From: Deltaproteobacteria bacterium
Lineage (GTDB): Bacteria; Desulfobacterota; Binatia; DP-6
DNA length: 64,000 bases
Direction: 5' to 3'
Assembly (NCBI GenBank): GCA_005888095.1
Contig: VBKF01000089.1
Coordinates: 37,898-101,897 of the forward strand
The position numbers and the translations under genes were made by a program. Below are positions 4,399 to 33,049 of this stretch, one piece after another. Every line of letters begins with the position of its first letter. Positions within the stretch are counted from its first letter, which is position 1. Below the pieces are notes generated by a model, which searched no databases, was not told the origin of the DNA, and worked only from the letters and a program-made list of their open reading frames with translations.

Positions 4399-5336
4399 TG
4401 AATGAGCGGCGCCATGTCCATCATCATCCGGGACGGCCGCCCGTACACGGGCATCACGCCCAGGTTGTCCGTGCCACGGTTTCCGCCGCGGTCGACGACG
4501 CCCTTCCCCATCACCCAGATGCCGAGCCCGCGGTTCCCGGTGGCGCTGCTGTCCCCGACCGCGATCCCCGGGCCCATGGCCCAGAGCCCGTTGCCGAGAT
4601 TGGCGTCGGCCTGCACGCCCGAGAGCAGCGTGTGCCCGACGTTCGCCATCACGCCGTGCTTGCGGTTCCCGTGCGCCGTCGCGCCGACGACCTGATGCAT
4701 GCCGCCGAGCAGCCAGAATCCCACCCCGGCGTTGGCGATCGCCTCGTTGCCGAAGCCGCCGCCGACGTGCGCCCCCATGCCGGTGAGCTTGAAGCCGTGC
4801 CGGCCGTTCTCGGACGCCCGGTTGCCGTCGAGCGCGTAGTCGGTGCCGCCGAGCGAGAACCCGTTGCGGCCGTTGCCTTCCGCGACCGAGCCGACGACCG
4901 TGAACCCGTCACCCTGCGCGACGAGGCCGTCGAGCCGGTTGCCGGCCACGCGGACGTTCACCGCGCTGCGCAGCGCCTGAACGCCGCGGGCGAGCACGCC
5001 GACCTGGAAACGCTCGACGGCGCCGGGCCCGACGAGCAGGAGGCTGCCGCGCACGACCAGGATGCCGATCCCTTGCCCGTCGCCGGCGATCGTCCTGCCG
5101 CCGAGGTCGAGCGTCACGGGACCGGAAGCGGCGACCACGAGGCCGTTCGCCGGGCATGGAGCCGCCGTCACCTCGTCCGCCGGACCGAGCACGCGAGAGG
5201 AGACGAGGACGTCGCCGCACGCGCAGGCGACGCGCTTGCCGTGCCCGTCGACGTCGTCGCCGCACGAACGAACGGCGCGGGCGGGCCCGGCGAAGGCGAC
5301 CACGAGCGTCAGCGCGAGGAGGCCGCGGATGCGCAT
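4365..5336 (-). CDS. Secreted right-handed parallel beta-helix repeat protein (NosD/PbH1-like)
   Basis: 323-aa ORF. Signal peptide MRIRGLLALTLVVAFAGPARA. Repeated GN-x-x-x-G turns (GNRLDGL, GNGRNGFSL, ENGRHGFKL, GNRKHGVM, GNGLWAM, GNRGLGIWV). Its 3' end overlaps the start of 1132..4398 by 34 nt on the same strand. Confidence 0.8.
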   Translation of the reverse strand: MRIRGLLALTLVVAFAGPARAVRSCGDDVDGHGKRVACACGDVLVSSRVLGPADEVTAAPCPANGLVVAASGPVTLDLGGRTIAGDGQGIGILVVRGSLLLVGPGAVERFQVGVLARGVQALRSAVNVRVAGNRLDGLVAQGDGFTVVGSVAEGNGRNGFSLGGTDYALDGNRASENGRHGFKLTGMGAHVGGGFGNEAIANAGVGFWLLGGMHQVVGATAHGNRKHGVMANVGHTLLSGVQADANLGNGLWAMGPGIAVGDSSATGNRGLGIWVMGKGVVDRGGNRGTDNLGVMPVYGRPSRMMMDMAPLIQCRIGMMGECR

Positions 5337-28378: not shown

Positions 28379-28429
28379 GGTCGGCTCGCTACCACGGGCG
28401 TCGCGTGGTGGCCAGCGGAAGCGGGTGCG

Positions 28430-28930
28430 TCAGCGCCGCGGGCGGCGCCGCCGGTCCACCGGCCGGCGCATGGCGACGGCGCCCTGGCCGTTCGGATAGA
28501 AGCCCTCACGGCTGGCCTCGGCGAGGAACCCCTCGGCGGCGAACAGCCGCTGTGCCACGCGGTTCGTCTCGGCGGTGTGCAGGCGGATGCCGCGCACCCG
28601 CCAGCGCTCGGCGATCGCGATCGCCTCGCGCACGAGCGCCCGCCCGATCCCGCGCCGCCGAGCATTCATGGCCACCGCGAGCGCCAGGAGCTCGGCGTCC
28701 GCCCGGCCCAGGTACAGGCCCGGCCGCATGCCGACCATCGCGAACCCCGCCGGGGCGCCCTCCTTCTCCGCCACGACGGTCGCGACGCCACGCGTCCCGA
28801 GCCAGTGCGGCAGCACGCGGTCATACTCCCCGTACGCGCTGAACGCCGTCCGCGCGAGATCCGCCACGAACTCGGCGTCCCCGGGGCCACCTGCTCGCAG
28901 CACGGCCGTCTCCTTCGCGGCGGACTCCAC
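28430..28930 (-). CDS. GNAT-family N-acetyltransferase
   Basis: Acetyl-CoA-binding motif RRRGIGRALV; ~166 aa. Confidence 0.85.
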   Translation of the reverse strand: MESAAKETAVLRAGGPGDAEFVADLARTAFSAYGEYDRVLPHWLGTRGVATVVAEKEGAPAGFAMVGMRPGLYLGRADAELLALAVAMNARRRGIGRALVREAIAIAERWRVRGIRLHTAETNRVAQRLFAAEGFLAEASREGFYPNGQGAVAMRRPVDRRRRPRR

Positions 28931-28990
28931 GCGCTGACTATGAGCACACTGCGCCGCGAGTCAATCCGATTCCGGGGGCCCGTGCGGTCC

Positions 28991-29209
28991 TCGCGCGGCT
29001 GCGCCGCGCTGCGGTCCTCCGATGCCCCCGGACCCCGTCGCTCGGGCGCGGCAAAGCCGCGCCCGGCTCCGCGCGCTCCCGCTGCCTCGCGCGGCTGCGC
29101 CGCGCTGCGGTCCTCCGATGCCCCCGGACCCCGTCGCTCGGGCGCGGCAAAGCCGCGCCCGGCTCCGCGCGCTCCCGCTGCCTCGCGCGGCTGCGCCGCG
29201 CTGCGGTCC
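28991..29209. repeat. Tandem repeat, 96-bp unit, about 2.3 copies
   Basis: The unit TCGCGCGGCTGCGCCGCGCTGCGGTCCTCCGATGCCCCCGGACCCCGTCGCTCGGGCGCGGCAAAGCCGCGCCCGGCTCCGCGCGCTCCCGCTGCC restarts identically at 28991, 29087 and 29183. Confidence 0.9.
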
Positions 29210-29704
29210 CGAGGCCCCGCTGCAGTCAATGCAGAGATAGTGGGTCAGCCACTCGACGAGGGCCCACCGGTCAAACCTGACCCATCATCCCTTTCCAGGG
29301 TTGTCGCGACTACCGGCGGCGGAAGTCGAACGACCGGGTGTCCGAGCCGCCTGCAGGACGCCGAGCAGGCCGCGGAGGCATTGGCACAGCCCTGCCGCGG
29401 GCGCAGCCCATCCCGGCCCGGAACCGCCCCGCCCCGCGCCCTGGAAGCCACATTGCGGCTTCGAGGCGGCGAGCGCGGGGGGCTGCGGCGACGGCGGGCG
29501 CGAGCGGCGAGGAGATTCAAGCCGCCCTTGCCGACGGCTCGCCGGCCTGGTCGCAGCTCAGCGCCGAGCGCGGCGGCATCGACGGCATCCGGCACGCCCG
29601 CCGCACCGCGCTCGGCGCGCAGGGACTCGACCGGCTCGACGCGGCCCGCACGGCGTCACAAGCGTAGAACGCGCGCTACCGCCAACCGGACAGAGGGCGT
29701 CGAA

Positions 29705-30076
29705 CTACAGCTTCTCCTTCTGGATGAAGATGCCCTTATCTACCCGCGCGAAGAAGTCTCGATAGAACGCCGGGTCGTCCACTGGCGCCGTTCGCTCCGT
29801 GTTGTCCGGCCAAGTCTTGATGGTCTCCTGGACGTTCACCCGGACCTTCGTCTGCTGACCAAATGGGCTGACGTTCACAATGTTCGGTGAGCCGAGGGCT
29901 TCCGCGACGTCCGCTTGGGAGAGGCCGCGACGGATCTCCTTCTGGACGACTCCCAGGGTCATCTGGCGGTCCCGCTCGGAGTGAAGTTCGCGGGAGTGGT
30001 ACGAGGCACTGCATCCCGCCACGACGAGGAGGATGGAGCATACCAATCTAACGGCTATTCGTACGATTTTCGGCAC
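29705..30076 (-). CDS. Small lipoprotein, SmpA/OmlA (BamE)-like
   Basis: 123 aa. Lipobox LLVVAGC. MTLGVVQKEIRRGLSQADVAEALGSPN resembles the BamE-type fold signature. The gene is visibly less GC-rich than its surroundings. Confidence 0.65.
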   Translation of the reverse strand: MPKIVRIAVRLVCSILLVVAGCSASYHSRELHSERDRQMTLGVVQKEIRRGLSQADVAEALGSPNIVNVSPFGQQTKVRVNVQETIKTWPDNTERTAPVDDPAFYRDFFARVDKGIFIQKEKL

Positions 30077-30205
30077 GGTTCATCCTCTTCCCTCGCCGCT
30101 TGACCTGCGGACGGCCTGTGTAACACGGGGAGGCGGCGACGGGCCAAGGCGCACCGCCACTTTCCCGACCCGCACACTGGGTATGGACTCACCGCCCGTG
30201 TTGCA

Positions 30206-30488
30206 GGCATCGCGCCGCAGCGCGGCTCCGCCGCGCGAGGCGCCCGCACCGCCTAGACGTGCGGAGGCCGGCGCCGCAGGCGCCACGCCGGCCGACGGGG
30301 TCCGGGGGCATCGGAGCAGCGCAGCGCGCGAGCAGCGCCCCGGCCGGCATCGGGCCGCAGCGCGGCTCCGCCGCGCGAGGCGCCCGCACCGCCTAGACGT
30401 GCGGAGGCCGGCGCCGCAGGCGCCACGCCGGCCGACGGGGTCCGGGGGCATCGGAGCAGCGCAGCGCGCGCAGCGCGCGAGCAGCGCA
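30206..30488. repeat. Tandem repeat, 140-bp unit, 2 copies; same family as 28991-29209 but in inverted orientation
   Basis: Copies start at 30206 and 30346. They contain GACGGGGTCCGGGGGCATCGGAG, the reverse complement of CTCCGATGCCCCCGGACCCCGTC in the 96-bp unit. Copy 2 carries a short internal duplication (GCAGCGCGC). Confidence 0.9.
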
Positions 30489-30505
30489 CGGGCCCCCGGA
30501 GTCAA

Positions 30506-33049
<2,544 letters not shown>

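Follow-up and report, generated by a model that had tools for sequence, protein, structure and literature searches.

An islet between the divergent GNAT and kdsB promoters of a Binatia genome: probably a mosaic of dispersed repeats and a decaying lipoprotein operon rather than one transposon

What kind of element separates the GNAT acetyltransferase gene (left) from kdsB (right) in a genome of the Binatia? The segment in question occupies approximately positions 28958-30506 of the 64-kb stretch of contig VBKF01000089.1 analyzed here (the window), and a first-pass annotation had read it as a single passenger-carrying mobile insertion with an 8-bp target-site duplication and inverted termini. 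The features behind that reading are present. GAGTCAAT occurs at 28958-28965 and again at 30499-30506, its only two copies in the window; CGGGGGCCCGTGCG (28973-28986) is the exact reverse complement of 30485-30498, forming an inverted repeat that is perfect over 14 nt and extends to 30 nt at 90%; two arrays of one repeat family lie inside in opposite orientation; and the body holds a single lower-GC open reading frame (ORF) with a lipobox and no transposase-like ORF, as ORF and Pfam inspection bore out. Nonetheless, we place the probability at roughly three in four that the segment is not one mobile element but a hypervariable inter-promoter islet, a mosaic of independent parts. Coordinates of all features are collected in Table 1.

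The geometry of the segment is asymmetric. Seven nucleotides (CCGATTC) lie between the left GAGTCAAT and the left arm of the inverted repeat, while the right arm abuts or overlaps its GAGTCAAT, as the repeat head on that side shares 1 nt with it (G30499 is the final head base); the proposed target duplication therefore does not abut both ends. Taken alone, the two GAGTCAAT copies are marginal, with a chance expectation of 0.42 copies per window and at least two copies in 6 of 100 shuffles. The palindrome GTCAATTGAC, which was thought to appear upon removal of the segment, is real, but it does not depend on excision, being already intact at the right end (30501-30510). Reading GTCAATTGAC as an integron-like or Xer/dif-like site was unsupported, with no integrase or recombinase in the body or in gene calls within ~5 kb.

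A consensus scan of 28400-31000 returned exactly two sigma-70-type promoters versus 0.1 expected by chance, P_GNAT and P_kdsB, and both copies of the direct repeat coincide with their -35 boxes. The left GAGTCAAT contains the P_GNAT box in reverse complement, and the right GAGTCAAT overlaps the P_kdsB box by its final base, the first T of that box. The window, L173, L175, L179, L182 and L180 all have P_GNAT (ATTGACTC...(C)TCATAGTCA), with a spacer that varies, and P_kdsB (TTGACA...TATAxx) is kept together with a conserved leader in L012-L017 and L180; fixed hexamers with a free spacer are the conservation pattern expected of promoters. Upstream of kdsB, (G/A)TCAATTGACA is retained in L012-L015, including genomes without repeats; L014 and L015 keep it although their neighbours on the upstream side are different. 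The pair of bases that precedes GTCAAT on the kdsB side varies (GA, GC, CC or G-A). Because GTCAAT is present in relatives that lack the repeat unit, it is native to this position and not carried by an element. Judged from these alignments, the motif common to both GAGTCAAT copies is the 6-nt GTCAAT of two outward -35 regions plus two matching bases (GA), and the supposed target-site duplication is found in relatives with other or no filler.

Relatives collected by kdsB, which put the window within Candidatus Binatia, are soil metagenome-assembled genomes labelled Deltaproteobacteria bacterium DP_26/DP_3 or Candidatus Binatia. Across these and the window, the gap between the two promoters contains at least five different fillers ranging from 26 nt to several kb. 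In L180 and L181 (68% identity to the window for GNAT, 80-84% for kdsB), the two -35 boxes are 26 nt apart (GAGTCAATTG...CCTTGACG). In L013, L173, L174, L176 and L178 (kdsB 89% in L013, GNAT 84%), GAGTCAAT is followed by an unrelated 286 nt and then by GCGTCAATTGACA. Both the repeats and the lipoprotein gene are missing there; homology to the window ends at 28966 on the left and starts again at ~30476-30499 on the right, and the spacer of L013 has no similarity to the window interior. This 286-nt filler (L013 4583-4868, with an equivalent in L173/L174) carries the perfect palindromes GGAGACGCGTCTCC and GCTTGACGTCAAGC and is conserved between samples (DP_3-type genomes). Yet another filler is found in L175, L177 and L179, where homology extends through GAGTCAATC(C/G)GATTC as far as 28972, one base short of the repeat head. 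Since L175 and L179 are homologous to 28972 without having the left cluster, CCGATTC is native flank. The same GAGTCAAT stands at the left position in L013/L173, L175 and L180, all of which lack the repeat cluster. The claim of an insertion thus held in part: the segment is non-ancestral and variable between conserved flanks (absent from the L013 type and from L180), it contains dispersed, mobile-looking repeats and lipoprotein DNA of foreign third-position GC, but the reading as one element is not supported. The alternative of nested insertions, also raised at first pass, came closer to the truth.

Repeat clusters like those of the window were found in DP_26. On its left side (L182) there is a single unit, orthologous to that of the window, with continuous alignment from the GNAT gene to 29070; on its right side (L012) a two-copy cluster aligns continuously into kdsB, with no lipoprotein gene. 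The interior DNA differs: besides non-coding sequence, it holds a small ORF and a gene of the GGACT family. At L012 137-361 (-) and L182 378-809 (-), the GGACT (gamma-glutamyl cyclotransferase-like) gene and a 75-aa ORF, for which no family match was found, replace the lipoprotein genes.

The presumed inverted termini are the heads of the outermost units of a ~98-nt repeat, which belong to two separate clusters. Left and right arrays are built from common modules in opposite orientation, and these modules are absent from the rest of the 64 kb. Copies are found well beyond this locus, as the 22-nt core CCGATGCCCCCGGACCCCGTCG occurs, single or in tandem, in at least 120 soil-metagenome stretches. 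Eighty core-bearing loci (440 kb in all) were fetched, none of which gave a tblastn match to any gene of the kdsB/GNAT locus, and 77 units were aligned. Their consensus comprises an AT-rich flank, a near-invariant head (CCGGGGGCCCGT(C/G)C), hairpin 1 (CTCGCGCGC-loop-GCGCGCG, with variants including CGCCCGC/GCGGGCG and CGGGCGC/GCGCCCG), the core, and hairpin 2 in two main forms, with ~98 nt from head to tail. In the consensus fold the head pairs with the core (TCCGATGCCCCCGGACCCCGTCG) around hairpin 1. Within this fold 97% of cells are paired, and changes on both sides occur at 11 pairs in 140 cells, compared with 36.7 in shuffles and at most 26 in slid-partner controls.

A covariance model gave 87 matches in the 80 fetched loci and scored 87 bits at 28955-29082 (left cluster) and 104 and 40 bits in the right cluster. 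When it was used to search for diverged copies, nothing beyond the known ones turned up in the window or in other Binatia loci. Units were single or formed tandem runs of two to three (L059, L066, L082, L086, L112 and L124). No target duplication was detected around 31 single units, as the longest common flank string averaged 4.03 nt versus 4.01 nt after shuffling. AT is enriched over the 11 nt flanking the head, where YWAAY occupies -9 to -5, and GTCAA is present in 7 of 69 head flanks versus 0.16% of control windows. Of 83 heads, ten have an outward TTGAC at a distance of 3-9 nt, and about seven of these (by eye) have a TA-rich, -10-like hexamer 16-18 nt further; loci with heads near an outward TTGAC include L051, L053, L066, L086, L089, L097, L101 and L118, most of them with a TA-rich hexamer after another 17-18 nt. 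About one locus in eight therefore has a unit immediately upstream of a -35-like TTGAC, as do both ends of the present segment, where the heads are 7 nt (left) and 6 nt (right) from the -35 hexamers. The family seems to settle in, or to be kept at, the upstream-element position of promoters.

No match at the gathering threshold was obtained from Rfam for the whole window, and a permissive search of 28850-30700 gave only a sub-threshold hit to Cyano-2 (E=0.12). We found no paper linking Binatia to such repeats and no copy of the core in viral contigs. On sequence grounds, the repeat is an undescribed REP-like family in an uncultured phylum, for which head, fold and flank motif are defined here.

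Both clusters of the window contain tandem copies. The left array has a period of 96 nt and 2.3 copies at 100% identity (28989-29209), and the right array a period of 140 nt and two copies at 97-98% identity (30203-30478). Inner copies of the left array are identical and lack a canonical head, which argues for recent tandem duplication within one unit and not for repeated insertion. Copy number differs among contigs L001-L011 and L166-L169 (99-100% DNA identity), in which one or two cores are present on the left and one or two copies on the right. The arrays are probably local amplifications.

The single gene of the islet is itself composite. The 123-aa ORF has a GC content of 0.58-0.63 versus ~0.72-0.78 in the flanks, and its lipobox (LLVVAGC) is at residues 16-22. 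Residues 1-66 match the N-terminal part of P0004 (lipoA, a 138-aa BamE-like lipoprotein), and residues 67-123 match the C-terminus of P0005 (lipoB, a 155-aa lipoprotein). At 99-100% DNA identity, L166, L167 and L170 are longer than the window at the junction (by 525 bp where measured) and L169 holds the lipoB side only; in L167, lipoA and lipoB are both called intact, 12 nt apart. The window is short of these 525 bp (3 x 175) between two GTGA repeats. The window ORF is, by this alignment, an in-frame fusion of lipoA and lipoB produced by a 525-bp deletion between GTGA microhomologies. The allele of GCA_009771615 shows a second in-frame loss, of 57 bp. Both deletions (window 29705-30076 (-); L011 1272-1586) keep the frame, and after both of them the lipoA signal peptide and lipobox are still joined to the C-terminal tail of lipoB. 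This double frame retention could be chance (~1 in 9) or could reflect selection against a truncated product.

GC content at third codon positions (GC3) of the lipoprotein DNA is 0.74-0.82 compared with 0.93-0.95 in host genes, which makes this DNA compositionally foreign; the adjoining 29231-29704 shows no coding signal. Elsewhere, lipoA forms a small operon with one to three lipoB paralogues in unrelated neighbourhoods. Together, the GC3 contrast and these operons suggest that the lipoAB operon was acquired. All contigs that carry the chimeric ORF, lipoA or lipoB with flanks reaching a neighbour gene are at the kdsB/GNAT locus, and shorter lipoprotein contigs match this locus at 99-100% DNA identity. 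As to the BamE assignment, the window ORF has no BamE match, intact lipoA (P0004) reaches 22.7 bits against a Pfam cut-off of 23.2 and 22.6 against a cut-off of 93 for the NCBIfam BamE model, and many homologues carry PF04355. Next to a lipoA-lipoB operon of an unrelated genome (48% GC), L172 5204-6154 (-) encodes a 316-aa protein whose match to Y1_Tnp (IS200-like) is weak; no link between it and the Binatia repeat was seen. Two further candidates in the ~470-nt stretch next to the ORF were rejected. A 109-aa ORF at 29338-29667, predicted by some gene callers, has no codon-position GC bias and no Pfam or family match, and the stretch as a whole is not a decayed lipoB paralogue, as it has no similarity to lipoB paralogues.

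Overall, the most probable history would begin with two REP/REPIN-like units settling beside two pre-existing -35 boxes, those of P_GNAT and P_kdsB, a placement that would fit the preference of the family for AT-rich YWAAY/GTCAA 5-9 nt outside the head. Each cluster would then have been enlarged locally by tandem duplication with varying copy number, and a foreign lipoA-lipoB operon would have been captured between them and would now be decaying, the 525-bp deletion having left the chimeric ORF. The 8-bp direct repeat would then be GTCAAT of the outward -35 regions plus GA, with the G of the right copy supplied by the repeat head, and the perfect inverted termini would be the two cluster heads. 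We infer this order of events from the comparison of loci. The dependence on hairpins, the lack of duplications and the constant offset of an AT-rich motif suggest an analogy to REP/RAYT and IS200/IS605 systems, by which the units may be mobilized by a REP/REPIN-like, hairpin-dependent, duplication-free mechanism with an enzyme acting in trans.

Several observations weigh against this account. The two outer GAGTCAAT copies agree at 8 of 8 positions, two bases more than the promoters explain. A third AGTCAAT lies at 29224-29230, at the inner edge of the left array, and all three AGTCAAT of the window (0.67 expected) fall within the islet; the promoter scan found no site at this third copy on either strand, nor a -10 partner, and it remains unexplained by a mosaic. 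(CTGC/GCAG border it, and a degenerate remnant of a left-cluster core immediately precedes it.) No clean empty site between the GNAT and kdsB orthologues was present in L013/L173/L174 (286-nt spacer), L180/L181 (26 nt), L175 or DP_26, relatives that are not of the same species. DP_26 and the window lineage share orthologous clusters around different cargo, a hint that the clusters may themselves contribute to turnover of the cargo. No mobilizing enzyme emerged: the clustered ORFs of the 80 repeat loci (440 kb) include no recurrent transposase-like ORF, the largest cluster being an artefact of ORFs reading through the repeat. Finally, most repeat-bearing contigs have no organism assignment, and copy numbers of 96-140-nt tandem repeats can be misassembled in short-read assemblies such as these.

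Of the competing explanations, an old insertion or tandem duplication at back-to-back -35 boxes (GAGTCAATTGACA) of a common ancestor fares best, although we consider it unlikely. It would have created the two GTCAAT motifs, and the contents between them would since have been replaced repeatedly, such that the direct repeat would be a genuine scar, but an old one that has nothing to do with what now lies in between (repeats, lipoAB, the GGACT gene or plain spacers). Consistent with this, GTCAAT borders the variable region in the window, in the L013 type and on the right side of DP_26, whose GNAT-side box reads GAGTCAAG; TCAA upstream of the kdsB -35 is conserved though no leftward promoter now uses it; and the GNAT box of L180 (GAGTCAATTG) is identical over 10 nt to the right copy of the window. 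Once the repeat head is discounted, however, only GTCAAT is common, as expected of two -35 regions, the boxes of L180 are separate entities 26 nt apart, and the filler states are not ordered by a species tree.

Even less probable is an exchange of cassettes bounded by the repeats, in which the inverted clusters serve as ends or as portable homology for swapping the DNA between them. In favor of this are the orthologous left and right units of DP_26 and the window lineage with unrelated DNA between, and the finding that RAYT genes always lie between inverted REPs (PMC2817692). Yet opposite-orientation model matches were seen in only 1 of the 80 other loci (L102, heads inward) and none encloses cargo with heads outward, the lipoAB genes are seen at this locus only, the DP_26 islet is split over two non-overlapping contigs of one assembly (L182 and L012) such that its content is incomplete, and a larger ancestral islet that underwent differential deletion accounts for these data as well. 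It is equally doubtful that outward clusters install or exchange cassettes (lipoAB, or the GGACT gene and small ORF of DP_26) upstream of -35 boxes as a REP-bounded, promoter-targeting system with an enzyme in trans. The least probable explanation, a single non-autonomous passenger transposon (28966-30498) inserted in GAGTCAAT|TGACA with an 8-bp duplication and 14-27-bp inverted ends, can draw on a direct repeat, an inverted repeat and a reconstructed palindrome that are all real, on a hypothetical empty site whose back-to-back -35 hexamers would make a workable divergent promoter pair, and on relatives without the segment, but it is largely refuted, given that its arms are heads of an independent repeat family that makes no duplications, that a 7-nt native spacer on the left and a head overlap on the right interrupt the arrangement, that both motifs occur in relatives with other fillers and the right cluster occurs without the lipoprotein cargo in DP_26, and that the whole unit was found at no second site.

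Set against known systems, the repeat most closely recalls the REP, BIME and REPIN sequences that RAYT transposases mobilize (Nunvar 2010, PMC2817692; Bertels & Rainey 2011, PMC3116915), with which it shares dispersed, extragenic, GC-rich palindromic units, clustering, hairpins with compensatory changes and absence of target duplication. In size and shape, its main stem (head and core around the inner hairpin, ~80 nt) resembles a REPIN doublet, for which spacings of 71-110 bp were described. Differences are equally clear: its head is CCGGGGGCCCGT(C/G)C whereas a REP head is defined as GT(A/G)G (PMC2817692). Moreover, the unit is longer and has a second hairpin, its clusters are direct tandem copies whereas those of REPs alternate in orientation, its host belongs to the Binatia and not the Gammaproteobacteria, and no RAYT gene was seen in the 440 kb of repeat-bearing contigs.

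Elements of the IS200/IS605 family recognize a tetra- or pentanucleotide target 5' of their left end, and palindrome-associated elements derived from them similarly have structured ends, no target duplication and an AT-rich motif outside one end. This comparison is by description; YWAAY, 5-9 nt from the Binatia repeat head, may belong to the target or to the element, and in contrast to that family no TnpA/TnpB partner was seen. MIRU-VNTR of mycobacteria and BOX of pneumococcus are modular intergenic tandem arrays of 40-140-nt units with strain-variable copy number. The window arrays (96 and 140 nt, head-to-tail, differing in copy number between contigs) resemble them in form, but sequence and host are unrelated and the arrays lie upstream of promoters and not within one operon. 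A miniature inverted-repeat transposable element or composite transposon likewise combines inverted sequences at both ends with a nearby short direct repeat and the lack of an internal transposase; here, the inverted sequences come from independent sub-units, the direct repeat is offset and already exists in relatives, and the whole unit is single-copy. Minimal mobile elements of Neisseria are alternative cassettes between conserved flanking genes, to which the GNAT/kdsB flanks, with at least five fillers and small repeats at the borders, bear some likeness; unlike there, no evidence of transformation-driven allelic exchange was seen here and several fillers are non-coding.

Table 1 Features of the islet between GNAT and kdsB and of its flanks (window positions)
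Feature	Position	Strand	Details
GNAT acetyltransferase gene, left conserved flank	28430..28930	-	Pfam Acetyltransf_1, E=2.3e-16
P_GNAT	28937..28964	-	-35 TTGACT 28964..28959, 16-nt spacer, -10 CATAGT 28942..28937
Left GAGTCAAT	28958..28965	+	Reverse complement of P_GNAT -35 box plus two flanking bases
Native spacer CCGATT, -35 box to repeat head	28966..28971		From L175/L179 alignment
Left repeat cluster	28972..29223	+	Head CCGGGGGCCCGT 28972-28983; 96-nt copies 28989-29084 and 29085-29180
Left repeat cluster, remainder	29181-29209, to 29223	+	Partial copy 29181-29209; degenerate core remnant to 29223
Third AGTCAAT	29224..29230	+	
Non-coding stretch, left cluster to 3' end of lipoprotein ORF	29231..29704		Codon-position GC bias absent from all frames (GC3 0.71-0.77)
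Chimeric lipoprotein ORF, 123 aa	29705..30076	-	Junction GTGA 29878..29875; lipobox LLVVAGC
lipoA upstream region	30077..30202	-	Ribosome-binding site GAGGA, presumed promoter; 99-100% identical in L166-L168
Right repeat cluster	30203..30499	-	140-nt copies 30203-30342 and 30343-30482
Right cluster, outermost head	30488-30499	-	Reverse complement ACGGGCCCCCGG
Right GAGTCAAT and overlapping palindrome GTCAATTGAC	30499..30510	+	GAGTCAAT 30499-30506; GTCAATTGAC 30501-30510
P_kdsB	30506..30535	+	TTGACA, 18-nt spacer, TATAGT; 11/12 consensus matches
kdsB leader	30536..30633	+	Long hairpin closed by CCGTAGCC/GGCTGCGG, then T-run just before ATG
kdsB, CMP-KDO synthetase, right conserved flank	30634..31389	+	Pfam CTP_transf_3, E=1.2e-54

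Both flanks of the islet are housekeeping genes. The GNAT gene is syntenic with acyl-CoA dehydrogenase genes in all relatives, with two such genes on the left flank of the window, and the right flank has the order kdsB-pyrG-kdsA-SIS/CBS gene-lipid A acyltransferase. Between P_kdsB and kdsB, the closing stem of the leader hairpin and the U-run are conserved in eight Binatia loci (L012-L017, L180 and the window) while the interior differs; in L180 a G-U pair is replaced by A-U. The hairpin is followed by a run of 5-7 T, with the start codon a few bases on, and the leader has no Rfam match. As kdsB uses cytidine triphosphate (CTP) and pyrG encodes CTP synthase, this terminator-like leader may be an attenuator or otherwise regulatory. 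In the more distant Binatia L014 (~4544-4850 (-)) and L015 (4456-4815 (-)), a different small lipoprotein gene (lipobox LLLGGC or LGTAGC) is divergent from kdsB and is followed by a thioredoxin-TPR gene. A small lipoprotein beside the kdsB promoter thus recurs, with unrelated genes in L014 and L015 and in the window.

The locus carries a caution for annotation: in a high-GC genome, divergent promoters with a rare AT-rich -35 motif and oriented repeats nearby can mimic the signature of a transposon, and comparison with relatives resolves this mimicry of a duplication with inverted ends. It also shows a captured lipoprotein operon that is apparently being lost by in-frame microhomology deletions, and the conserved, terminator-like leader ahead of kdsB-pyrG may be a candidate regulatory leader. 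The repeat family itself has a clear consensus, a fold supported by covariation, an AT-rich flank motif and a frequent placement upstream of -35 boxes. Its copy-number variation could be used for strain typing, and the family would offer a way into the search for its mobilizing enzyme and into the question of whether it alters promoter strength.

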